A stretch of DNA of 64,000 bases from a virus. The stretch lies in IMG/VR virus record IMGVR_UViG_2921643360_000001, positions 1 through 64,000 of that record; one strand, written 5' to 3'. The position numbers and the translations under genes were made by a program. Below the pieces are notes generated by a model. It saw only the letters and a program-made list of their open reading frames with translations, was not told the DNA's origin and did no database searches. This document shows positions 3,806 to 59,526 of the stretch, in pieces (position 1 is the first letter of the stretch; each line of letters begins with the position of its first letter).

Positions 3806-4639
3806 TTACTTGCTGAGTTGGATCATCGGCATTGCGCTGCCCATCATGTACTGAGGGTAGTGCCCGTCCCATTTGGCGATCTTCTGTTGCTCGATCAGCG
3901 CGGGGTTTGCCTCAAGCGATTTGCCCGTCAGCTCATTGGCCTTGGCGTTGTTCTCAGCAACCTTCAGCGCTGCCTCAGACTCAACGACGCGCTTTTGCGC
4001 TTCCCACTTCGTCTGGGCAATTTCGTTCTCGACGCGCAATGCGTTCTGCTGGGCGGTGATCTTCGCCTCAATGGCGTCGTTGAACTGCTTGCTAAACTGG
4101 AAGTCAACGATGTTCACCGCCGACACATTCACGCCGATATTCTTGAACCGAGTCAGCAACGCCTCGCGGATCTCCTGACTAACCTGGTCCCGCTTCTGAA
4201 TCAGGTCAGTAGCTTCGTATCGGGCCACGATAGCCTTCACGATGTCATGCACTGCCGGGTCCATGACTTGCGCCCACGGATCGCCGCCGAGATTGGCATA
4301 AACGCCGACTGCCGCAGTCGGAAGAATATTGAAGTTGACGGCGACCTTCATGTCGGCCTGTTGCAGGTCTTTTGAAGAACCCGCGATATCCGATTGCGCC
4401 TTGTACACGCCGATGTAGACCGTGTGCATCGACTGCGAAATCGGCATACGGAAGTGGATGCCGGGCTCGTACACCGTGGCGGATGGAGCGCCGAACGTGG
4501 TCATCACGCCGACGTAGCCCGCTGGCACGGATGCGAACGGCCAGAGGATGAAAAGCGCGATGAGCAATACAACTGCGCCGATAGCGCCGAGGATCAGCTT
4601 GATGCCGCCTCGCGGGACTTCTCTGGATGCAACAGCCAT
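3806..4639 (-). CDS. SPFH / band-7 (prohibitin-like) membrane protein
   Basis: Start moved to the internal ATG at 4639, preceded by SD AAGGAAAA. An N-terminal TM helix (LILGAIGAVVLLIALFILW) is followed by the 'VPAGYVGVMTTFG' SPFH core and a coiled-coil tail. Confidence 0.8.
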   Translation of the reverse strand: MAVASREVPRGGIKLILGAIGAVVLLIALFILWPFASVPAGYVGVMTTFGAPSATVYEPGIHFRMPISQSMHTVYIGVYKAQSDIAGSSKDLQQADMKVAVNFNILPTAAVGVYANLGGDPWAQVMDPAVHDIVKAIVARYEATDLIQKRDQVSQEIREALLTRFKNIGVNVSAVNIVDFQFSKQFNDAIEAKITAQQNALRVENEIAQTKWEAQKRVVESEAALKVAENNAKANELTGKSLEANPALIEQQKIAKWDGHYPQYMMGSAMPMIQLSK

Positions 4640-23747: not shown

Positions 23748-23881
23748 GCACCGCCACCTACTACTCAATCCTCGCCACGATCTGCCTCACGCGAGTGGTG
23801 CCTAGGTGGGCTTGCATCGCCAGCGGGATCGTCTATCTCGGGCTTGCGGTTGCTCTTGACATGGGGTGGTTTGCACGATGA
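23744..23881 (+). CDS. 45-aa membrane peptide
   Basis: ATG overlaps the upstream TGA. Reads MSTATYYSILATICLTRVVPRWACIASGIVYLGLAVALDMGWFAR. Confidence 0.4.
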   Translation: MSTATYYSILATICLTRVVPRWACIASGIVYLGLAVALDMGWFAR

Positions 23882-24489
23882 ACCGTCTCCCCAGAAAAAA
23901 GAAGTGCGCAGCTTGCAAGACGGTTTTCGAACCAGCGCGCTCACTCCAGAAAGTGTGTAGCCCCAAGTGTGCCGCCGATTTTGCAGCGAAACAGAAAGCG
24001 CAGAAGTTGGCGAGGGCGAATCGGGAGGAGAGGAAGTCCCTCGCAGAGCGTAAAGCCAAGCTCAAGACTCGCCGCGAGTGGATTGCCGAGGCTCAGGCGG
24101 CATTTAACGCATACGTGCGTGAGCGAGATTACGGGAAGCCATGCATAAGTTGCGGCATCCCGCCGAGGGAAGCTTTCGGCGGCGCTGTTGATTGCGGTCA
24201 TTATCGAAGTGTTGGCAGCGCTTCTCAGCATCGCTTCAATTTAAAAAATTGCGCTGCACAATGTGTCAAATGCAATAGATATTTAGGATCTAATGCCGTC
24301 GAAATGAGGAAAGGACTTATAATTAAGATTGGTCTAGAAGAATTGGAAAATCTAGAGTCAGACCAGACCATCAAGAAGTTCAACATCGAATACCTCGCTC
24401 GCATCAAGCGAGTCTTCCTCAAGAAAGCGCGGCGAGCTAAGGCCCGGAGAAATCATGAGCATAACGAAATGGAATATGCAGCCGGGTGA
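23878..24489 (+). CDS. ninG: NinG/Rap-like recombination protein
   Basis: N-terminal 'KKCAACKTVFEP...VCSPKC' and central 'CISCG...DCGHYRSVG...NCAAQCVKCNRYLGSN' fit lambda NinG. Confidence 0.75.
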   Translation: MNRLPRKKKCAACKTVFEPARSLQKVCSPKCAADFAAKQKAQKLARANREERKSLAERKAKLKTRREWIAEAQAAFNAYVRERDYGKPCISCGIPPREAFGGAVDCGHYRSVGSASQHRFNLKNCAAQCVKCNRYLGSNAVEMRKGLIIKIGLEELENLESDQTIKKFNIEYLARIKRVFLKKARRAKARRNHEHNEMEYAAG

Positions 24490-25264
24490 CCGGTTTTGTC
24501 GGCTGACCTTCAAGAGTGAAGGCGACGGTCGTAAAAATCGGGCGAGATATGGAATCTTCATCTGCGATTGTGGTACCGAGAAAGATGTGGCGTTCTCGCA
24601 CGTTGTTTCGGGAAAAATAAAAAGTTGTGGATGCCTCAAAGCGGAAGATGCCGGTAACAGGCTTCGCACTCATGGGATGCATGGTTCGCCAGAATATACG
24701 GTGTGGCAAGACATGTGGCAGCGCTGCACCAATCCAAAGACGGACAGATATCCGAATTACGGCGGACGGGGCATATCCGTCTGCGAGCGGTGGAAGTCGT
24801 TCGAGAACTTCTTTGCAGACATGGGTCAGCGCCCAGAAGGAACGTCGATAGAGCGAAAGGAGACGAACGGCAACTACGAGCCAAGTAACTGTCGTTGGGC
24901 CACGCCCAAGGAGCAAGGAAGGAATAGAACCAACAACCGTTTTATCGAATACAACGGGGAGAGGAAATGTGTTTCTGAATGGAGCGAGCAATTCGGCATA
25001 CCTCATTCAACGATTAACAATCGACTTCGGCTAGGGTTATCGTTAGATCAGGTTTTTGATGCAAGTGCAGATGGGTTTAAAAAGAAGTCAATCGTTGTCG
25101 ATGGTGTATCGAAGTGCACCAACGAATGGATGCGTGATGCTGGCATACCGATTTCGTCCTTCTATCACTTCCGGCGAAAGGGGCTGACTGAAGAAGAGAT
25201 CGTCAGGAAGTATCTGGCGCGCAAGCAACCCTACTCTCAAACGAATAACGAGGAAGCAGCCTAA
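24455..25264 (+). CDS. HNH-like (degenerate HNH_3-type) free-standing endonuclease paralog 1
   Basis: 'YPNYGGRGISVCERW..FENFFADMGQRPEGTSIERKETNGNYEPSNCRWATPKEQGRN' plus two C-terminal HTH-like repeats. Overlaps the ninG 3' end. Confidence 0.65.
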   Translation: MSITKWNMQPGDRFCRLTFKSEGDGRKNRARYGIFICDCGTEKDVAFSHVVSGKIKSCGCLKAEDAGNRLRTHGMHGSPEYTVWQDMWQRCTNPKTDRYPNYGGRGISVCERWKSFENFFADMGQRPEGTSIERKETNGNYEPSNCRWATPKEQGRNRTNNRFIEYNGERKCVSEWSEQFGIPHSTINNRLRLGLSLDQVFDASADGFKKKSIVVDGVSKCTNEWMRDAGIPISSFYHFRRKGLTEEEIVRKYLARKQPYSQTNNEEAA

Positions 25265-50511: not shown

Positions 50512-51228
50512 TTGTCGATTGGAGATAGCAACGACGTCTTCGGGCGCCTGAAAGCCGCCCTGCCGCAGCGATGGTTTGGGTCGACTTCGGATTCGATGCC
50601 GGTTGTCGATTCGATCCTGGCAGGACTCGGAACCGGGTTGACGTTCATCTATTCGCTGTATGCCTACGCCAAGGCACAAACAAGACTTTTAACCTGTTCG
50701 GATGGCTTTCTCGATATTTTCGCCAGCGACTTCTTCGGGTCGTCGATACAGCGCAAGGCAAACCAGTCTGACGCCTCATTCAGGGGAGTCATCCAGGCAA
50801 ATCTATTCGCCGAGAAGGCCACACGCAAAGGCGTCGTCAACGTCCTTACGACCATCACCGGGCGAGCGCCAGTCGTATTCGAGCCCAACCGCGTTGGTGA
50901 CGTCGCAATTATGGGCGTGCCAACGGCAGGCGGACAGAACTACATGGGCATTCAGACGAGCATGTATGTCGGGCCTGCGCGCATGGCGTCCACGGCGACA
51001 CCCTACCAGGCTTTCATCATCGCATACCGCCCACAGGCAACGGGCGGATCGGCTGGCGGTGCTTTTACGGATGCGCCCACTCAAGCCGCACTGAATACGC
51101 CCCTCGCCAAGTCATACACCAATTCCCTGTCATTGCTGACGTCAAGCGCAACCGACGCCGACATCTACGCAGCAGTGGACGCTACGCGCCCGGTCGGAAC
51201 CATTCTCTGGGTAAGCATTTCGAACTGA
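50512..51228 (+). CDS. Baseplate/tail protein (Mu gp48 / P2 gpI-like)
   Basis: TTG start, 238 aa, assigned by order. Confidence 0.5.
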   Translation: MSIGDSNDVFGRLKAALPQRWFGSTSDSMPVVDSILAGLGTGLTFIYSLYAYAKAQTRLLTCSDGFLDIFASDFFGSSIQRKANQSDASFRGVIQANLFAEKATRKGVVNVLTTITGRAPVVFEPNRVGDVAIMGVPTAGGQNYMGIQTSMYVGPARMASTATPYQAFIIAYRPQATGGSAGGAFTDAPTQAALNTPLAKSYTNSLSLLTSSATDADIYAAVDATRPVGTILWVSISN

Positions 51229-51261
51229 CAAGCATGTCTAATCTATTTCGGCTAAAATAGC

Positions 51262-51297
51262 GAGACCCGCTCGGTGCGCTAACACCTTGCGGGCCTC
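51262..51297 (+). promoter_or_regulatory. Conserved leader hairpin of cassette 2
   Basis: GAGACCCGC..GGTG-cgctaa-CACC..GCGGGCCTC, which covaries with the copy at 58737..58773. Confidence 0.55.
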
Positions 51298-51328
51298 TAA
51301 CCACCATCTGCTTTCGAGGAGCAAAACG

Positions 51329-51952
51329 ATGGCTACCAAAGATTTTACCTCAGTTGGCGCAGTATTTTCCCGCCTTACCGTGATAGGTTCGCCAGAGAAG
51401 CGCGACCAGCGCTGGTTCGCGCCCTGCCGTTGCGAATGCGGGGCCGAGAAGTTTGTGCAATGCAAGCATCTTGTGTCCGGCGCGACGGTTTCCTGCGGTT
51501 GCGTGAAAAAGGGGCGACCCAACCTGAAGAATCGGACCCATGGCAATTGCGTTGGCGAGAGCAAGGCTTCTCCAACGTATCTAAGCTGGGTTGCTGCCAA
51601 ATCGCGTTGCGATGATGCCAAGGACCGAGACTATGCGAATTACGGCGGTCGGGGCATTCGCATGTGCGATCGCTGGCGCAATGATTTCTCGACGTTTCTC
51701 GCCGACATGGGCGAGCGGCCCGTTGGCATGACGCTAGACCGCTTCCCGGACACGGACGGCCACTACGAGCCGGGCAATTGCCGCTGGGCGACGAACCGCG
51801 AGCAACAGAATAACCGCCGCAATAATGTCCTCATTGAGCACGGCGGCCAGATGAAAACATGCACGCAGGTCGCCCGCGAATATGGAATCCGCCCCAGTGT
51901 GTTCATTGGCCGCATACGACGAGGATGGTCGGTAGAACGCGCCACATCCTAA
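51329..51952 (+). CDS. HNH-like (degenerate HNH_3-type) endonuclease paralog 2
   Basis: 'YANYGGRGIRMCDRW..FSTFLADMGERPVGMTLDRFPDTDGHYEPGNCRWATNREQQNN'. N-terminal Cys cluster CRCECG..CGC. Confidence 0.65.
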   Translation: MATKDFTSVGAVFSRLTVIGSPEKRDQRWFAPCRCECGAEKFVQCKHLVSGATVSCGCVKKGRPNLKNRTHGNCVGESKASPTYLSWVAAKSRCDDAKDRDYANYGGRGIRMCDRWRNDFSTFLADMGERPVGMTLDRFPDTDGHYEPGNCRWATNREQQNNRRNNVLIEHGGQMKTCTQVAREYGIRPSVFIGRIRRGWSVERATS

Positions 51953-51988
51953 CCTGTCGGCAAATAGATAGCTGACGCTAAAACACCA

Positions 51989-52043
51989 AGCCCGCTAAAC
52001 GCGGGCTTTTTCATTTTCTGGCCCGCCATCGTGCGGGCTTTTT
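51989..52043 (+). terminator. Two tandem rho-independent terminators
   Basis: AGCCCGC-taaac-GCGGGCTTTTT at 51989..52011 and GGCCCGC-catcgt-GCGGGCTTTTT at 52020..52043. Confidence 0.8.
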
Positions 52044-52060
52044 GCATTTCTGGAGCCTAA

Positions 52061-53704
52061 ATGGACCGTGTGATTACGTATGTAGGGATGAGCGTATACG
52101 AATGGCTCTTTTCTAAACAAGCGCAAAGCTCGATGGTCGGGCTCTCGAAGCTGTCGGCCGCCATGTTCGGTTCGAATACCGTGGCCAATGGTCTTTCCTG
52201 CGTACCGACCGGCCCCGCTTCGCTGCAAGTCGTCATCAACCCCGGCGAAATCTACTCGTTCGCCAACCTCGAGAACAGCGTCTGCGGAACGCTGCCGACT
52301 GATTCTCACAGCATCATGAAGCAAGGCGTCCTGCTGGATGCTTTTACGACGACTGCTGGTGCGCTTCCCGCGCCAGGCACGGCTGGACAGTCGGTGAACT
52401 ATCTCATCGAAGCCCAGTACGCAGATTCAGACGTCTCGGTCGATCCGACGACGGGCAGCGCGCCTGTCGTGCTTCAGTTCTATAACTCTTCGAATCCCGG
52501 CTCGCCTTGGAGCGGTCCTGGCGGCCTCGGCGGCACGAGCAACACGTTCCGTAAGGGCGTTGTGTCGCTCCAGATCAAGGCAGGTGCCGCGGCAACGACG
52601 GGCAGCCAGACGACGCCCTCACCTGATGCTGGCTGGACTGGGCTGTGGGTCGTGACGGTCGCCAATGGGCAGACACAGATCCTCGCGGGCAACATCACGC
52701 AATACGCAGGCGCGCCAATCCTGCCGTCGTCGATTCTTTCGTCGATCCAAAGCGGAAATATGTCGTATGCGGTCGCAACCGGGTCGGCTAACGCTCACAC
52801 GATCGCCTTGACGCCGGCTCTCACGTCGCGCGTCGACGGCATGATGATCCGCTACAAGGCTCCTGCCGCCAACACGACAGCCGTGACGCTGAACGATGGC
52901 GTCGGAACGGCCAACGTTCTCGGCGCGAACCACGCGGCACTCCAGGGCGGCGAATACATCACCAACGGTGACGCCATTGTCGTCTGGAATAGCTCGATCA
53001 GCGGCGGTTCGTACATCCTCATCGAATGCACTGGCGGCGCCCTCCAAATCCCCCCCGCCACTCAGAGCCAGCATGCTGTGCAGTTGGGGCAGGTGCAGCA
53101 GAACTATGCGTGGAATGGCGGGTTCCAGGCCGTTAGCGCAACCGGGAACTTTACAGTTCCGGCCGGCGTTTATAGATTGCGTTACCGCGTATGGGGTGGC
53201 GGTGGCGGCTCAGGCGGATGTGGGTCGACTGGCCAGACAGCAGGGGGCGCTGGCGGTGGCGGCTACTCCGAGGGAGTCGCTAGCGTAACTCCTGGTCAAA
53301 CTGTGTCATGCACTATTGGAGCAGCAGGTACCGCCGGGGGGGCAGGTGGCTCCGGTGGTACAGGCGGCACTACGTCGTTCACTGCAGGCGCTTTGACGGT
53401 TTCCGCTACCGGCGGGTCTGGAAGTTCAAACGGCATAGGGTCTGGCGGGAATGGAGCAGCCGGTGGCACCGGATCTGGTGGGCAAAACAACCTGACTGGT
53501 GCCGGCGGCTGCTCGGGTTCGGGCTCGACGGGCGGCCCTGGGGGCATGGGTGGTTCGGCCCCCCAAGGCGGTGGCGGTGGCGGTGGCGCAACTGGGACCG
53601 CCCAGTCCGGGCAGACGCCTGGCGGCGGCGCAGGAGGGCCTGGTGCGGCTGGAGCCAACCCGGGCGCCATTGGCGGAGCTGGTCGCATTGTTTTTGAATG
53701 GTGA
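52061..53704 (+). CDS. Tail fibre protein with C-terminal glycine-rich domain
   Basis: 547 aa after the baseplate. C-terminal 'WGGGGGSGGCGSTGQTAGGAGGGGYSEG...GAGRIVFEW'. Confidence 0.7.
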   Translation: MDRVITYVGMSVYEWLFSKQAQSSMVGLSKLSAAMFGSNTVANGLSCVPTGPASLQVVINPGEIYSFANLENSVCGTLPTDSHSIMKQGVLLDAFTTTAGALPAPGTAGQSVNYLIEAQYADSDVSVDPTTGSAPVVLQFYNSSNPGSPWSGPGGLGGTSNTFRKGVVSLQIKAGAAATTGSQTTPSPDAGWTGLWVVTVANGQTQILAGNITQYAGAPILPSSILSSIQSGNMSYAVATGSANAHTIALTPALTSRVDGMMIRYKAPAANTTAVTLNDGVGTANVLGANHAALQGGEYITNGDAIVVWNSSISGGSYILIECTGGALQIPPATQSQHAVQLGQVQQNYAWNGGFQAVSATGNFTVPAGVYRLRYRVWGGGGGSGGCGSTGQTAGGAGGGGYSEGVASVTPGQTVSCTIGAAGTAGGAGGSGGTGGTTSFTAGALTVSATGGSGSSNGIGSGGNGAAGGTGSGGQNNLTGAGGCSGSGSTGGPGGMGGSAPQGGGGGGGATGTAQSGQTPGGGAGGPGAAGANPGAIGGAGRIVFEW

Positions 53705-53928: not shown

Positions 53929-55242
53929 ATGCTTATTTCGAAAATCGGCGGGGCGGTAAATAAGGTAGCGATGTCGGTCAAGCATCGCGTCGTCGGGCGG
54001 GCGATCTCTACGCTAGAGAAACCTCATCAGGCAGTTCCCGATGTCGCGATTCCCGATGTTCCCGAGACGGATGAGTCTGTTCTCGCTCGATCCGAGTCTA
54101 TTATTTCCCGGGCAATTTCTGCTGGCCGATCTGGCAAGCTGACCGTTGTTCCTGAGATGATCTCCGTCGCGGCCACGGAAAACTGCAATCTTAAGTGTGT
54201 TATGTGCCCAGGTCATGCGGGTATGAGCGGTCCGAAACTCTCAGTCAATGAGGCCGAAATGCTATTCGCCTCGCTCGCTGTTGAAGGCCCGCATTTTGGG
54301 TCGCCGAAGATCCTAGACATGACATCTGGTGAGCCCACGCTCAACCCCGACCTAGGGCCAATTTACGGCCGATTCAAAGAACTTTTCCCCGATTCGAAGA
54401 TTTCGATGATAAGCAACGGGACGATCCCCGTTCGCGGTCGAACCCGTGAAGCATTCGAACATGCTGACCGCATCGGTCTTTCGATGGACGGCGCGACGCA
54501 GGAGACGTATGAGCGGATCCGTCAAGGGTCGATATGGAAGAACGTCATTCGCAATGTGATGGACGTTGCTGAAATCAAGAAGTTGGGTGAGAACTGCGAG
54601 ACGTTGCAGATCATGATGGTTGTTATGGACCAGAATATCCATGAACTACCTGAAATGATCCGCCTCGCACATTCCCTTGGAATTCCGCAAGTGTTCGCGC
54701 AGGTTTCTGAGATTCGTACTACCCCCTTCAATATCGCAGGGCAGAACGTTTCGCTTACTCTCTCAAAGGAAAAACTCGCCCCTATAGTACACGAGGCGAA
54801 GCAGGAGGCTCAGCGACTCGGCTTGGATTTGACTCTTACGGCGCATCTGGAAAATTCACTCGTTCCGGATGAGCCAAAGCAACCAGCGACTGCTCAGATG
54901 ACACATGACGAGCGCGCGTTGAGTGTCGCGATTCGAACGTGTAATGTGCCGTGGATGCATGCACCGCGCATTTCGCAAAATCACGATGGGATCTACCCCA
55001 CAACGGTTTGCTGCCATATGCCGAATGTCCATGGCGCTGGCAATTTGGCACGCCGGGAGGAGTTCCGCGGGAAGTCGATCAACGAAATCTTCAACTCGCC
55101 ATACTATTGGGAAATTCGGGCTGGGTTGATGGATGGATCGCTTGCCAATGATGCATGCAAGGGTTGCCAGTATCACCAGATGACGCAGTGGACGGCCACC
55201 CAATTGCGCGAATTGGAAGAGGCCGTCGATGCATCAGTTTGA
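53929..55242 (+). CDS. Radical SAM enzyme with SPASM/twitch-like Cys-rich C-terminus
   Basis: 'ENCNLKCVMCPG' (CxxxCxxC), 'SGEPTLNP' and 'SNGT'. C-terminal Cys pattern CNVPW..VCCH..ACKGC. Visibly lower GC than the flanks. Confidence 0.8.
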   Translation: MLISKIGGAVNKVAMSVKHRVVGRAISTLEKPHQAVPDVAIPDVPETDESVLARSESIISRAISAGRSGKLTVVPEMISVAATENCNLKCVMCPGHAGMSGPKLSVNEAEMLFASLAVEGPHFGSPKILDMTSGEPTLNPDLGPIYGRFKELFPDSKISMISNGTIPVRGRTREAFEHADRIGLSMDGATQETYERIRQGSIWKNVIRNVMDVAEIKKLGENCETLQIMMVVMDQNIHELPEMIRLAHSLGIPQVFAQVSEIRTTPFNIAGQNVSLTLSKEKLAPIVHEAKQEAQRLGLDLTLTAHLENSLVPDEPKQPATAQMTHDERALSVAIRTCNVPWMHAPRISQNHDGIYPTTVCCHMPNVHGAGNLARREEFRGKSINEIFNSPYYWEIRAGLMDGSLANDACKGCQYHQMTQWTATQLRELEEAVDASV

Positions 55243-55605
55243 TTGATTCAGGGACGGGGATAACGACGGCGCCTCGCCACATTCGTTTTCGGCTAGTCCC
55301 TGCTCGTCTACAGGTCGGTCAGGAAAGCTCATAGGCGCTCGCATTCCGATCAGTGCCGTGAGTTTTCCGAAGAAGGACCGCTTGTGCGTCTCCAGTCCGA
55401 ACTCTCGTGCGCTTCGCTGGAAGTTGTCGACCTCCCCGGAGCAGAAGCAGGCGACATACCGGTAGGTCTCTCGTCGTCGATTCAGAAGGGCGAAATACGC
55501 ATAGACAGGCTGATCGAATTTCTTGATCTCTCCCACCTGTAAGCGCTCAACAAATGCTTTGTCCTGCTCCGGCATGTGCCGCGTAGTCAAAAGTATCGTC
55601 TGCAC
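55234..55605 (-). CDS. 123-aa hypothetical protein (GTG start, strong SD GGAGG)
   Basis: Converges on, and overlaps by 9 nt, the radical-SAM 3' end. No motif recognised. Confidence 0.55.
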   Translation of the reverse strand: MQTILLTTRHMPEQDKAFVERLQVGEIKKFDQPVYAYFALLNRRRETYRYVACFCSGEVDNFQRSAREFGLETHKRSFFGKLTALIGMRAPMSFPDRPVDEQGLAENECGEAPSLSPSLNQSN

Positions 55606-55706
55606 TTCGATCCTCCGTCTCTGGGTTATTTAGGATCGCGCTGAATGTTCAGGGGATTGCGTTGTTTTTCAATTCGTTACCCCTGTAACGACCGCCGATA
55701 ATACAC

Positions 55707-56504
55707 CTAAAATTTTATTTTCAGCTCCAGCGCATCGGCATCATTCCACAGTGGCGGAATTTCGCGCTTGTTGCTGTTGATGCTCATGAAGTAATGCCTG
55801 TAGCTCAAGGTGAGGCGACCGTTTCCTACGGACAGCCCAGCAACGGGCGCGACGGACCAGTAGGCATCGGAAACGCTGATGTCCTGTGCCGTCTGCGTTG
55901 GCCACGCCTTCCACCCGGCGACGTGCTCGGACCACGAGTCACGATGCACATAGGCGCCGACTTCTGCGCCGACGCGGACGCCGTAGACCCAGTAGTACGG
56001 CTCAAGCGTCAGCGCGACACCTTGTGATCGTCCTTCGCCCGTGAAATACGCCTGCGGTACGTCAACCTTACGCGTGTAAGAGTGCGACGATGGGTCGTAA
56101 TTCGCGTCATTCGGCGTGCATGAGCAGTCGGCTGCAGCGCGACCAAGATTGACGTATTCGGCGTGCCAGTCGACGCCCCATTTGCCGCGAGTGATGAGCG
56201 GACCAGTGAAGCCAGCAGAGAAAGCCGGCGGCTTGCTCGTCAGCTTTGAGCCGCCCGGAATGCCCTCCTGGTACCAGCGACCATCGGTCGTGGTGTACTT
56301 GGCCGCGCCAATGCCCAATTCGACCTGAACGTAATCGTTGATGTAATCAGCATGCGCCGACGCAGCGGCACAGCCCAAACTCATCGCAACAGCCGCCGCA
56401 CGCCACCGCGACCCAACGCGGCGATTCGTGCGTGAAGCCGTAACCTGTTGGCGCGGAACTCGGCGACCGCGTGAAGCCTGAACCACCCGATTTTGCGTGT
56501 GCAT
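55707..56504 (-). CDS. Outer-membrane beta-barrel protein (Lom/Ail-like moron)
   Basis: Signal peptide '..AAVAMSLGCAAASAHA|DY', alternating aromatic beta-strands and a C-terminal '...LELKIKF'. Confidence 0.7.
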   Translation of the reverse strand: MHTQNRVVQASRGRRVPRQQVTASRTNRRVGSRWRAAAVAMSLGCAAASAHADYINDYVQVELGIGAAKYTTTDGRWYQEGIPGGSKLTSKPPAFSAGFTGPLITRGKWGVDWHAEYVNLGRAAADCSCTPNDANYDPSSHSYTRKVDVPQAYFTGEGRSQGVALTLEPYYWVYGVRVGAEVGAYVHRDSWSEHVAGWKAWPTQTAQDISVSDAYWSVAPVAGLSVGNGRLTLSYRHYFMSINSNKREIPPLWNDADALELKIKF

Positions 56505-56506
56505 TT

Positions 56507-57187
56507 TTATTCTCCGAGCGCAACTGTCAAATTAGCTGCGTGATTTGCTGTCCAGACGGTTGCGAAAGCTTGCAGCGATGCTTTGCGCTCGTCATAGTCC
56601 TTGCCCAAGCCGATCATTACGGCGTTGCGCTCTTCCAGTCTTGCCAGAAGATCGAGCGCAGTCGTTGACAGGCTGTCGCGCTCAAGAGATTGAAACTTGC
56701 CTGATGCGGCCCAGTTGACCAGCCGCGCCTCATTGGAAAAATGATGCGGAGCGCATGTCTTGCCGATGGCCTCGCGGCTCAATTGCACAATCTGCGACAT
56801 GACCTTGTATGACGCTGCGGCTTCGTGGCGAAGACGTTTCTGGTCAAAGTGCGGATGCTGGCGTGTGATGAGCGCACGAATTTGCCGATCGCACCAGATA
56901 GCGAAGCGCACGTCCAGCCATCGGGCGAATCCAACCGCAAGATCGGGATGAAGCCAAGTTCCGCCGCTCTTGCCGCGCAAGGTGCGAATCCAATTACCAG
57001 ATTCTCCGGTATTTAAGGATTCATCCAAGGCAGCGATGTATTCCTGTGTGGCAGGAAGGGCGAGCCAGTCATTCGGACGCTTGCCGAATTGCGAGGCGAT
57101 GGCTGTCGCATTGAACCAACCTTCGTCAGTAAATGAGACGGCCACGCCTTGGTAGTCTGCGACGATGATTTGCTGTTTGGGGGCCAT
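56507..57187 (-). CDS. KilA-N domain protein
   Basis: 'VSFTDEGWFNATAIASQFGKRPNDWLALPATQEYI...GTWLHPDLAVGFARWLDVRFAIWCD' matches KilA-N. Confidence 0.75.
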   Translation of the reverse strand: MAPKQQIIVADYQGVAVSFTDEGWFNATAIASQFGKRPNDWLALPATQEYIAALDESLNTGESGNWIRTLRGKSGGTWLHPDLAVGFARWLDVRFAIWCDRQIRALITRQHPHFDQKRLRHEAAASYKVMSQIVQLSREAIGKTCAPHHFSNEARLVNWAASGKFQSLERDSLSTTALDLLARLEERNAVMIGLGKDYDERKASLQAFATVWTANHAANLTVALGE

Positions 57188-57212
57188 TACCGCGCTCCCA
57201 TGCTGAATGATG

Positions 57213-57493
57213 CTACTGCGTGTCTTCTCCAGCGGCCTCCGACATGTCCATCGTGGCGCCGACTTTGCGCATTTCGTCGATCACGGCTTCGATATCCCGC
57301 TGCTTGAGCACGAGTTTCGCCATAGCGAAAAACAGCATTTGCGCGCTGATCTTCCTCGGCTCCTTCCCGCCCGTATATTTCCTGAATTGCTTGTCGTCCG
57401 ATACACCGAACAACTCGGCCATCTGGGAGCCGGTATATCCAAGCCGCGCCTTGAGTCGCGCTAGGTCTTCTGGGGTCGGTGCTTCGTAGCGCA
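57213..57493 (-). CDS. XRE-like HTH regulator
   Basis: 'GYTGSQMAELFGVSDDKQFRKYTGG'. ATG at 57493 is preferred over the TTG at 57509. Confidence 0.6.
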
Positions 57494-57595
57494 TTGAGGA
57501 ATCGTCCAAGGCTGCGCGAAAAATCGCGAAATGTTCTTCTCATGATTCTTCCTTTCGGAGTTGTCGGGTTGCCGGATGGCCGCCCTGTGATTGGA

Positions 57596-57625
57596 AGTAT
57601 CAGCCCCGAAGGGGGCATTTGTCAA
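57596..57625 (-). promoter_or_regulatory. Sigma70-like promoter (TTGACA-18-GATACT) for the HTH/KilA-N/OMP operon
   Basis: Read from the minus strand. The spacer contains the hairpin GCCCC-ttc-GGGGC. Confidence 0.5.
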
Positions 57626-58014: not shown

Positions 58015-58629
58015 ATGCAACTCACAGCACAGATTGTCGCGTCAGGGTGTGGCTCAGCGCTTCTTCGGGCGGCGCAGTGGGTCGCCCCGCTCCAATCCGC
58101 CTGCGACCGCTACCACATCGACACGCCTCTGCGCGTCGCGGCCTTCCTGTCGCAGATCGGCGTCGAGTCTGCCCGCCTCACCGCCCTCGTCGAAAACCTG
58201 AATTACTCGGCAGAGGGTTTGCTCGCAACCTTCCCGAAGTACTTCAACGCAGTGCAGGCGGCGCAGTACGAGCGACAGCCGCAGCGCATCGCGAATCACG
58301 TCTACGCGAATCGGTACGGCAATGGTGACGAGGCGAGCGGAGATGGATTTCGATTTCGCGGCAGAGCGTTGCTCCAGATAACCTTTAGAGACAACTATGC
58401 CTCATGCGGTAAGGCGATTGCGCTGCCTCTCGACTCACATCCTGAGTTGCTTGAGCAACCATGCAATGCGGCGCTCGCGGCTGGCTGGTATTGGGACTCG
58501 CGCAACCTTAACCCGCTGGCCGATGCCGGTCGATTCGAGGGCATCACGCGCGCTATCAACGGCGGGCTCGCAGCGTATTCCGAACGCCTCGCTCTCTATA
58601 GCGCTGCAAAGAAGTCACTCGGTATCTGA
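58015..58629 (+). CDS. Endolysin, glycoside hydrolase family 19 (chitinase-like)
   Basis: 'FLSQIGVESARL...NLNYSAEGL...YANRYGNGDEASGDGFRFRGRALLQITFRDNY...INGG' matches GH19 endolysins. Confidence 0.85.
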   Translation: MQLTAQIVASGCGSALLRAAQWVAPLQSACDRYHIDTPLRVAAFLSQIGVESARLTALVENLNYSAEGLLATFPKYFNAVQAAQYERQPQRIANHVYANRYGNGDEASGDGFRFRGRALLQITFRDNYASCGKAIALPLDSHPELLEQPCNAALAAGWYWDSRNLNPLADAGRFEGITRAINGGLAAYSERLALYSAAKKSLGI

Positions 58630-58736
58630 TTATCCCCTCGCATCCCTCGCTAAGGGATAGCGGCCAAACGGGTAATTTCACGATAACTGCGACACGCGTA
58701 GCTCGATCGTAGTCCGAAATTTTGAGGTAAAATAGC

Positions 58737-58773
58737 GAGAGCGGAAAGGTACTTGCGATACCGATCCGCTCTC
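58737..58773 (+). promoter_or_regulatory. Conserved leader hairpin of cassette 3
   Basis: GAGAGCGGA..GGTA-cttgcga-TACC..TCCGCTCTC, a perfect 9-bp outer stem plus a 4-bp inner stem. Confidence 0.55.
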
Positions 58774-58803
58774 TAACCAAAGCCTGCTTACAAGGAGCAA
58801 ACT

Positions 58804-59472
58804 ATGGCTATCCGCAAGTATATCGCATCTGGCGAAATCCTCCATGGTTGGGTCTACGTCCGAGAGGGCGTGGATCGCGGCAGGACTCGGCACATCTTCG
58901 CAATGTGCCCCTCATGCAAAAACGAAGTCGAAGTAAATGCGACTGAGGTGCGGACTGGAAAAAAGAAAATGTGCCGTCCATGTGCCGACAAATTCAACGG
59001 GGCGAGATGCCTGGTTCATGCAGAAAAGTGGGCGACGCACAGGATGTCAGGTTCGACAACTTACGAATCATGGCGGTCTATGATGAAGCGTTGCTACTTA
59101 GAAAGTGCAACGTTCTATCAATACTACGGCGGAAAAGGGGTCAAAGTTTGCGACCGTTGGCGGGATTCGTTCGCCAATTTCTTTGCTGATATGGGAGAGC
59201 GCCCTGAAGGCATGACCTTGGACAGATACCCCGACAAGAACGGTGACTACGCGCCGGGTAACTGCAGATGGGCAACGCCAACGGAACAGATTCGCAACAG
59301 AAATACCACGGTGTATATTGAGTTCCGGGGGTTGCGCAAAACGATGAAGGAATGGGCGGATGAAATTGGTGTCGCCTACAAGACATTACGCGCAAGGATA
59401 GTTGACCAAGGATGGCCAATAGACCGCGCACTTACTACGCCGCTGCGGATCCACAGAAAGCACGTCCCATAA
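58804..59472 (+). CDS. HNH-like (degenerate HNH_3-type) endonuclease paralog 3
   Basis: 'YQYYGGKGVKVCDRW..FANFFADMGERPEGMTLDRYPDKNGDYAPGNCRWATPTEQIRN'. N-terminal CPSC..CRPC. Confidence 0.65.
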   Translation: MAIRKYIASGEILHGWVYVREGVDRGRTRHIFAMCPSCKNEVEVNATEVRTGKKKMCRPCADKFNGARCLVHAEKWATHRMSGSTTYESWRSMMKRCYLESATFYQYYGGKGVKVCDRWRDSFANFFADMGERPEGMTLDRYPDKNGDYAPGNCRWATPTEQIRNRNTTVYIEFRGLRKTMKEWADEIGVAYKTLRARIVDQGWPIDRALTTPLRIHRKHVP

Positions 59473-59497
59473 ATCAAAGAAGTCGCTGCGACTGACA

Positions 59498-59526
59498 AGC
59501 CCGCCATTGTGCGGGCTTTTTGTTTT
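59498..59526 (+). terminator. Rho-independent terminator of cassette 3
   Basis: AGCCCGC-cattgt-GCGGGCT followed by TTTTGTTTT. Confidence 0.8.

Follow-up and report, generated by a model that had tools for sequence, protein, structure and literature searches.

Three genes of one nuclease-like family stand at junctions between gene modules in the viral DNA analysed here (IMG/VR record IMGVR_UViG_2921643360_000001, positions 1 to 64,000; hereafter the window, 64,000 nucleotides). We refer to them as copy 1, copy 2 and copy 3 (c1, c2 and c3), and to c2 and c3 with their non-coding surroundings as cassettes 2 and 3. Our comparisons suggest that the three are free-standing genes of the homing-endonuclease type with an active site like that of PacI, that c2 and c3 are under the control of a portable antisense element, and that c1, which has no promoter, is coupled to the gene before it. 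We put the probability of this reading at roughly 60%.

Copy 2 occupies a site that is empty in most relatives

In comparison with related loci, copy 2 is clearly a clean insertion of ~0.8 kb. Its closest homologues (62-69% identity) lie at the same junction, between a baseplate gene of the PF27728 family and a fibre gene, in L001, L002 and L003/L004 (compared loci are given by such labels). Orthologues at an identical junction could mean a core gene of these phages, but this is ruled out by the relatives that lack it. Among 94 loci fetched with relatives of the baseplate gene, ~85 are empty and 4 are filled with a c2-type gene. At the empty loci no nuclease gene is present and the fibre gene follows only 60-75 nt after the baseplate gene, in the order baseplate stop codon, ~25 nt, GC-rich terminator, ribosome-binding site and fibre ATG.

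Closest among the relatives is L085, a metagenome-assembled Paraburkholderia genome with a baseplate protein of 94% identity. Its DNA runs collinearly with that of the window on either side, at 80-89% nucleotide identity, and lacks ~800 bp (51229..~52019).

The borders of the insertion are best seen between L004 (filled) and L005 (empty). On the left, the two are 100% identical over 1.3 kb to the penultimate baseplate codons, and on the right, they are 100% identical from about nucleotide 115 of the fibre gene onward. Between these identical stretches are the cassette, an altered resident terminator, and ~16 substitutions clustered in nucleotides 9-57 of the fibre gene. Filled and empty alleles differ in the final baseplate codons as well. 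Flanking sequence thus appears to have been co-converted, and the pattern has the look of a co-conversion tract beside a homing-endonuclease insertion (PMC2988022). The 5′ end of the fibre gene is the likely target of c2.

Divergence between flanks and nuclease is incongruent, which we count in favour of mobility. In L003 the flanks are 78-89% identical to the window and the nuclease only 63%, and in L001/L002 the flanks are 45-50% identical and the nucleases 66-69%.

Other relatives (L043, L049, L060, L063, L069, L088 and L090) hold inserts of 1.5-3 kb at the baseplate|fibre junction. They were considered as nuclease genes and rejected, being extra fibre or spike genes or an acyltransferase, and they mark the junction as a general hot spot of gene gain.

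Copy 1 is also variable among relatives, and copy 3 has no close counterpart

Like c2, c1 is present or absent at a fixed site. Orthologues of 64-66% identity stand directly after ninG in L379, L380 and L385, 3 of ~20 ninG relatives, and ~17 are without it. The orthologues always overlap the ninG stop codon. NinG ends in ...REAA* without copy 1 and in ...RYAA* (TATGCAGCC) with it, the changed codons creating an ATG. Because the ATG at 24476 overlaps the ninG stop as in the orthologues, c1 probably starts there, translationally coupled to ninG. It has neither a leader RNA module (the covariance model R1 described below finds no match there) nor a terminator of its own, and its C-terminal helix-turn-helix (HTH)-like unit is duplicated.

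No close orthologue of c3 was found, the best match being 55% identical over 61% of the length. Homology of L296 and L302 to the window stops 15 nt past the endolysin stop codon. An empty site was not definable via the endolysin or the downstream gene, as the two flanks lie in different modules among the relatives found.

An earlier note on the window, drawn from its letters alone, had proposed free-standing, homing-endonuclease-like insertions at module junctions that spread within one genome. The first half holds for c2, by its clean indel and co-conversion-like tract, and for c1, by its presence or absence after ninG. The spread within one genome does not hold, as detailed further below.

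The leader of cassettes 2 and 3 resembles SymR and the R1162 countertranscript

In a permissive Rfam scan, the symR model RF01809 matches the minus strand in front of c2 (51334..51259) over model positions 1-77 of 77, with 44.5 bits against a gathering threshold of 61 (E 1e-7). The leader in L269 reaches 41 bits, and c3 has no symR match at E <= 1. On the plus strand, RF00043, the R1162 antisense-RNA family, matches c3 with 29.3 bits and c2 with 23 bits, both weak against a gathering threshold of 55.

The converse comparison was made with R1, a covariance model built from 11 phage leaders without any enterobacterial or plasmid sequence. R1 scores 89.7 bits on the sense strand of cassette 3. 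It finds the annotated symR locus of E. coli K-12 (L402, 2830-2920) with 28.4 bits and E 3e-7 as the only significant match in 5 kb, and the IncQ repA leader (L405, 323-412, plasmid CP044303.1), the site of RF00043, with 37.1 bits and E 4e-10. By these scores the relation to the symR and R1162 elements is reciprocal between models, and the leader module appears to be of the same family as E. coli symE/SymR and the IncQ repA leader/R1162 countertranscript. The relationship is visible to covariance models only, as the leaders, compared by blastn with E. coli genomes and plasmids, gave no matches or only chance ones. RF00043 and RF01809 carry no clan label in the scan output, and R1, built from neither, recovers both, which suggests that the two are one family. 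In the literature we found no link between SymR and HNH or homing endonucleases.

On the hybrid IncQ/IncFII plasmid NZ_CP047767.1 (L404, 877), where repA is without its native leader, R1 gives no match. An RF00043 element of that plasmid (8885-8951) now stands ahead of a different open reading frame (ORF), which starts GTGAATGAC.

SymR overlaps the ribosome-binding site and start codon of symE and blocks translation, and a mutation of the symR promoter raised SymE seven-fold (PMC4147584). The predicted antisense RNA of our cassettes has the same layout. It starts 3 nt inside the coding sequence (AGUCAU in E. coli, AGCCAU here), with a −10 box in codons 5-7, two hairpins, and the Shine-Dalgarno sequence and AUG covered. 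The downstream protein, on the other hand, is unrelated, SymE having an AbrB-like fold. Inspection by eye shows no LexA box ahead of c2 or c3; no scan for it was run.

Since symE/SymR is a recognised type I toxin-antitoxin pair, the shared architecture could mean that the cassettes are toxin-antitoxin or exclusion modules, in which a nuclease toxin is held by the SymR-like RNA and the prophage is stabilised or incoming DNA attacked, with no copying of the cassette. E. coli symE lies among restriction genes (mcrBC, hsdS) and PacI itself is a restriction enzyme, which would fit such modules. We nevertheless consider this unlikely. PADLOC finds no defence-family match. Orthologues of c2 recur at one junction and those of c1 at another, divergence is incongruent, and substitutions are clustered beside the insert in an otherwise identical pair, which together are a signature of homing. 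A toxin-antitoxin role and homing are compatible and could coexist.

The antisense strand carries a terminator-like end and a presumed −10 box

The 3′ hairpin of the predicted antisense RNA in cassette 2 is the one that the earlier note had seen on the sense strand, with a tail, UCUCGCUAUUUUA, complementary to TAAAATAGCGAGA. The note had taken TAAAATAGCGAGA plus the hairpin for a promoter. The element is real, but a consensus scan finds no sigma-70-like plus-strand promoter at either cassette, and the hairpin with UCUCGCUAUUUUA (TAAAAT on the sense side) is better explained as the terminator of the presumed antisense RNA, a 3′ hairpin with a U-tail.

At the other end, the predicted antisense gene lies over the Shine-Dalgarno sequence and start codon, with its promoter in the first codons of its target. 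In 22 of 27 instances a TAnnnT box precedes the presumed antisense start by 4-10 nt, for the most part by exactly 7 nt, where 2,000 shuffles gave a mean of 3.5 and a maximum of 9. The box is independent of the encoded protein. At the same position are TAGAAT in E. coli symR and TAGGCT in IncQ. A −10 box in codons 5-7 would explain the conserved N-terminus 'MA..D(F/I/S)T'.

The antisense folds are −43 kcal/mol for c2 (z −5.7) and −38.3 kcal/mol for c3 (z −5.9), each with two hairpins like E. coli SymR (−38). The sense leaders of c2 and c3 form the same two hairpins at ~−30 kcal/mol (z −3.7 and −5.5), so that over nearly the same stretch the antisense fold is favoured by ~8-13 kcal/mol. Sense hairpin 2 pairs the Shine-Dalgarno sequence and the AUG. 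The leader is kept in c2 orthologues with compensatory changes. Among 28 instances, in an alignment fitted to the model, 96.3% of base-pair cells are paired versus ~35% in slid controls, 14 of 17 pairs have double changes, and double-change cells number 101 versus 24 in shuffles.

It is improbable that this region functions on the sense strand only, with TAAAAT as the −10 of a promoter, a 5′ stabilising hairpin, a second hairpin sequestering the ribosome-binding site, and no antisense RNA at all. TAAAAT as a sense −10 with hairpin 1 as a 5′ stabiliser was our first reading, revised after the symR match and the antisense −10 analysis. Several family members do have an extended −10, TGnTAnAAT, 6-8 nt before hairpin 1; the sense leaders do fold, with the z-scores given above; and covariation is strand-neutral. 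However, unrelated proteins keep the antisense TAnnnT in their codons 5-7, both RNA families matched by the region are described as antisense RNAs, the antisense folds are the more stable, and the consensus scan leaves both cassettes without a sense promoter. Sense and antisense functions of the leader are compatible and could coexist.

The inner loop of hairpin 1 (window 51271-51290 and 58748-58767, and orthologues) is often C-U-N-N-N-A/G-A on a stem of 4-5 bp. That it resembles a tRNA anticodon loop is an unsupported impression. Hairpin 1 falls into two sequence classes, GGUGCUAnCAACACC and GGUACUUGCGAUACC.

The leader is shared with unrelated genes

R1 also finds the leader ahead of further members of the PacI-like family, to which pattern scans contribute more, and in L118 two nuclease cassettes of this family stand in tandem, with leaders at 2754-2834 and 4466-4555. 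The same leader stands ahead of unrelated genes as well, namely HNH_3+AP2, HNH_3-like, classical HNH (PF01844), HNH_3+HTH and GP88; some of the HNH_3 genes with it are in L228, L135 and L206. In metagenomes it is also found ahead of integrases, ArdC-like proteins and small proteins, 40 of 61 pattern loci being supported by the covariance model. A looser scan by pattern in viral contigs was set aside, since chance accounted for most of its matches.

In L252 (4178-4263) and L434 (1395-1480) the module is solo, followed by a 4-codon ORF (MAPA*) and without an antisense −10; both look decayed. On a metagenomic phage contig (L189, 4383-4444), a Pistol ribozyme match of 33.9 bits against a cut-off of 34.5 lies ~0.8 kb downstream of a leader with a GP88 gene.

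The proteins share a putative PacI-type active site

All parts named by the earlier note, an N-terminal Cys cluster, a core motif and a C-terminal helical tail, are present in c1, c2 and c3. The three align end to end with 36-42% pairwise amino acid identity and have in common the core Y.NYGG(R/K)G..C.RW..F..F.ADMG.RP.G..(L/I)(D/E)R.....G.Y.P.NCRWAT..EQ..N. A fourth copy was not found in the window by tblastn. In c2, an N-terminal Cys-rich beta domain is followed by a beta-beta-alpha core (T135-R138, C151-A154 and helix 156-161) and a C-terminal 3-helix tail. The core has the beta-beta-alpha-metal fold of the His-Me finger/HNH superfamily.

PHROG 374 and 3377 ('HNH endonuclease') match the three proteins at E 1e-47 to 1e-66; with 8790 ('restriction endonuclease') added, the range is 1e-34 to 1e-66. 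The family has at least 7,996 homologues, and 119 of 120 among the matches listed have no Pfam domain. The note's likeness to HNH_3 failed when the model itself was applied, as Pfam HNH_3 (PF13392) matches none of the copies even at E = 1. Nor does any other Pfam or NCBIfam model match the proteins, the scans having returned sub-threshold noise only (HTH_psq, YnfU, IS256 Zn variant). Among PDB sequences, phmmer and profile searches found nothing relevant, and a whole-model Foldseek search against PDB gave nothing significant, I-HmuI ranking second with E 0.86. A 359-aa homologue, P0139, has a GIY-YIG domain (PF01541) besides its match to the PacI-like family and is possibly a fusion of two nucleases.

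By the structural models, PacI is the closest solved fold to these proteins. The position of the usual general-base His is Arg (R138) in 53 of 53 aligned members, and PacI likewise has Arg. R138, Y146, N150 and N162 are invariant in this alignment, and D137 is nearly so (Glu in c1). When PacI, its sequence checked against PDB, was aligned with the family profile, only the catalytic motif aligned, LDRFPDTDGHYEPGNCRWAT with PacI VDRS-DSFEGYSPQNARLAC. Y146 then aligns with PacI Y100 and D137 with PacI D92, and N150 is 12 residues from the helix Asn, compared with 9 in PacI. Sequence profiles of the family do not reach PacI, so that the link is at the level of structure and motif only.

PacI has no catalytic His; a loop Tyr acts in its place, and the metal is bound by Asp and Asn (PMC5714182, PMC4081073). 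By this analogy, Asp-Arg instead of Asp-His is the PacI-type variant of the active site (D-R, loop Tyr, Asn), which is active in PacI. Because PacI cuts DNA with the same arrangement, the loss of His in the family need not imply an inactive enzyme. The earlier note was correct that all three copies have Arg in place of this His, which it called degenerate; its doubt whether they cut DNA is answered by the precedent of PacI.

PacI (PDB 3ldy/3m7k; His-Me finger group 20, PMC5714182) and our proteins have the D-R / G-Y / P-x-N arrangement in common. Compared with PacI, the latter are extended by a Cys-rich beta domain at the N-terminus and an HTH-like tail at the C-terminus, and their genes are insertions in phage genomes, whereas PacI is a chromosomal restriction enzyme. 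HNH_3 homing endonucleases such as I-HmuI share with c1-c3 the overall beta-beta-alpha pattern and a modular build with DNA-binding tails. They differ by their general-base His and by the Pfam model, and I-HmuI is no significant structural match.

Replacement of the canonical His in every aligned member might also mean that the proteins are catalytically dead and domesticated as site-specific DNA binders, for example regulators. His-Me domains turned into non-catalytic DNA binders are known, and Smad MH1 is such a precedent (PMC5714182). We judge this to be very unlikely here, since PacI with the same D-R / G-Y / P-x-N cuts DNA via its Tyr; Y146, N150 and N162 are invariant; the gene is missing from most relatives, hence no core regulator; and tight translational repression suits a toxic product.

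The three copies are separate lineages

The earlier note had reported homologous non-coding flanks of c2 and c3, and its exact motifs are indeed found at only two places each in the 64 kb, where chance would give 0-0.75. TAAAATAGCGAGA occurs at 51253 and 58728, CTCTAACCA-N4-CTGCTT at 51295 and 58771, and GCCCGCCATYGTGCGGGCTTTTTG at 52021 and 59499. The similarity persists on alignment of the two regions by blastn, with non-coding motifs 80-100% identical and the coding parts aligning only over the core at ~70%. It was this contrast that first made us doubt that the flanks are merely left over from a duplication.

The leaders of c2 and c3 are 70% identical, less than they are to leaders of unrelated metagenomic phages (82-89%). 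Leader and protein identities are decoupled in these pairs: 89% and 36% for c3 and L288, 82% and 35% for c3 and L232, and 82% and 41% for c2 and L269. From this we infer recombination at the leader module. On these comparisons, the flank similarity within the genome is taken as family-wide conservation of a regulatory module, and the three copies as separate lineages with no intragenomic burst. Recent duplication and spread inside this prophage, to which three paralogues in one 64-kb element and c2/c3 flank motifs unique within the window would point, is hardly credible, because the paralogues are 36-42% identical to one another versus 62-69% (c2) and 64-66% (c1) to same-site orthologues in other phages, the c2 and c3 leaders are closer to leaders on unrelated contigs, and c1 has no leader at all.

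The downstream similarity of c2 and c3 is real, too, but it is weak as the shared cassette end that the note had seen in it, because the c2 side of the 24-nt match is a common, resident-type terminator (T2 in Table 1), the cassette's own being T1. Two similar terminators in tandem follow the nuclease gene in the window, L001 and L004, and only one in L002. The second of the tandem corresponds to the single empty-site terminator by its position and its type of sequence. Terminators with its stem, GCCCGC/GCGGGC, are common in these phages (L006, L007, L084 and window 57650). The tandems are located at ~6650-6740 in L001, where the two are nearly identical, at 51988-52044 in the window, and at ~5500-5570 in L004. 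Adjacent twin terminators suggest that the resident terminator was duplicated or gene-converted at insertion. A sub-threshold Rfam Trp_leader match (window 51901-52014; 29 versus 41 bits) over the c2 stop and T1 is most likely a terminator look-alike.

A possible course of expression and homing

No terminator lies between the upstream genes and the cassettes, and no sense sigma-70-like promoter was found; therefore, read-through transcription from the late (baseplate and lysis) operons is probable. In the mRNA, the fold of the 5′ leader would pair both the Shine-Dalgarno sequence and the AUG. A cis-antisense RNA of ~77 nt would start opposite codon 2, cover the ribosome-binding site and start codon, and end at the conserved hairpin with its U-tail. 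Synthesis of the nuclease would be prevented in the lysogen by the antisense RNA together with the self-pairing leader. Once lytic growth supplies late mRNA in abundance, the antisense RNA would be titrated and the nuclease made. The enzyme, presumably using loop Tyr Y146 with Asp137 and Asn162 and with Arg in place of the usual His, would cut a cassette-free relative near the junction, for c2 probably at the 5′ end of the fibre gene. Recombinational repair would then copy the cassette and some flanking DNA into the cut genome.

Several points weigh against this course. Cleavage, homing and the antisense transcript are inferred from comparisons of sequence. The difference between L004 and L005 could equally come from a precise deletion plus recombination. 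Mobility of c3 is unsupported, with neither an empty-site counterpart nor a close orthologue. The symR score of c2 is below the gathering threshold and c3 has none, and the covariation is that of an alignment fitted to the model, besides being neutral as to strand. Finally, the leader is not specific to homing endonucleases, since it precedes GP88, integrase, ArdC-like and small-protein genes.

Relation to known control and mobile systems

Free-standing homing endonucleases are well known in phages. Those of the T4 type (seg, mob; mobE of Aeh1) are also intergenic insertions between conserved genes and variable among relatives. T4 homing endonucleases are known to be controlled by hairpins that sequester the ribosome-binding site (PMC2988022). 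Unlike these, the nuclease here is PacI-like and not of the HNH_3 or GIY-YIG type, the host is a temperate prophage of Burkholderiaceae, and a predicted cis-antisense RNA is added, which is absent from the T4 review (PMC2988022).

The IncQ (R1162/RSF1010) repA leader, with its 75-nt countertranscript, has in common with the cassettes CUAACCAcc...CUGc.AAgGAGgcaA.C.AUGGCUAC and the preceding GC-rich hairpin. In contrast to the cassettes, it regulates the gene of a plasmid replication helicase. The symE and R1162 antisense RNAs are both described as repressors of the downstream gene.

In the PeSL (promoter-early stem-loop) cassettes of T4-like phages, short conserved regulatory motifs likewise border variable genes and have changed much less than the genes that they precede. 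PeSLs have been proposed to mediate modular shuffling (PMC2839356, PMC4122927). Unlike the module here, they are composites of terminator and early promoter without sequence relation to it, and are not described as antisense RNA genes.

Genomic setting and features

The window, with 58% GC, is prophage DNA that comprises early, nin, head, tail, baseplate, fibre and lysis modules, and a Paraburkholderia steynii contig (MWML01000013.1, assembly GCA_004334975.1) has the same gene order. In the public annotation of this contig, c2 and c3 appear only as hypothetical fragments of 96 and 130 aa, and the conserved N-terminal Cys domain is missed; the C-terminal part of c3 is 100% identical to the 130-aa NCBI protein. 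When the late and early regions were compared by megablast with 50,697 deposited phage records, no close relative of the window emerged. The sole nucleotide-level match of the late region was a 100-nt stretch within c2, to an HNH gene of Burkholderia phage BcepMigl. Rfam at gathering thresholds has no match in the window, and tRNAs were not found. The interval from fibre to lysis (53929..57618) has a radical-SAM gene on the plus strand and a minus-strand block that includes a KilA-N domain protein, and looks like a moron-like insert in the late region. Coordinates are collected in Table 1.

Table 1 Genes, cassette parts and predicted RNA elements in the window
Feature	Position	Strand	Remark
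ninG-like gene	23866..24489	+	left neighbour of copy 1; final codons overlap the copy 1 start
Copy 1 (c1), PacI-like HNH-family gene	24455..25264	+	269 aa counted from 24455; likely true start ATG 24476
Baseplate gene (PF27728 family)	50512..51228	+	left flank of cassette 2
Cassette 2 as indel	51229..52019	+	spacer, leader/antisense module, coding sequence, own terminator
Predicted SymR-like cis-antisense RNA, cassette 2	51253..51334	-	5′ end AGCCAU opposite codon 2; covers AUG and Shine-Dalgarno sequence
Copy 2 (c2), PacI-like HNH-family nuclease gene	51329..51952	+	207 aa
Presumed antisense −10 box TAAAAT, cassette 2	51342..51347	-	c2 codons 5-7, 7 nt upstream of the presumed antisense start
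Terminator T1, cassette 2's own intrinsic terminator	51988..52016	+	
Terminator T2, at the position of the empty sites' resident baseplate/fibre terminator	52020..52044	+	motif in common with copy 3
Tail-fibre gene	52061..53704	+	right flank of cassette 2; first ~60 nt a candidate target or co-conversion region
Endolysin gene	58015..58629	+	left neighbour of cassette 3
Predicted antisense RNA, cassette 3	58728..58809	-	architecture as in cassette 2; other hairpin-1 sequence class
Copy 3 (c3), PacI-like HNH-family gene	58804..59472	+	222 aa
Presumed antisense −10 box TATACT, cassette 3	58817..58822	-	codons 5-7
Intrinsic terminator after c3	59497..59522	+	23/24 identical to T2 of cassette 2

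Implications

The cassettes appear to be an ordinary kind of element, phage homing-endonuclease-like; less ordinary would be the PacI-type chemistry and the portable control of the SymR/R1162 type. As a tentative idea, the ~90-nt leader with its SymR-like antisense gene might be a self-contained and widely travelling 'safety catch' for dangerous genes of mobile DNA, uniting SymR, the IncQ countertranscript and the phage nuclease leaders. It might at the same time be a recombination handle by which unrelated nuclease genes are exchanged among phage genomes, and the cassettes would then be hybrids of homing endonuclease and type I toxin-antitoxin system.

A very large family without a Pfam model appears to use the rare PacI-type chemistry, which would turn PacI from an oddity into the representative of a major class of phage nucleases. 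SymR and the R1162 countertranscript, filed as separate, narrow RNA families, appear to be one portable antisense module in front of many phage and plasmid genes, and the conserved sequence of the module is a good marker for mis-annotated nuclease cassettes. If so, the antisense module would give a simple, testable answer to how a prophage carries a DNA-cutting selfish gene safely.

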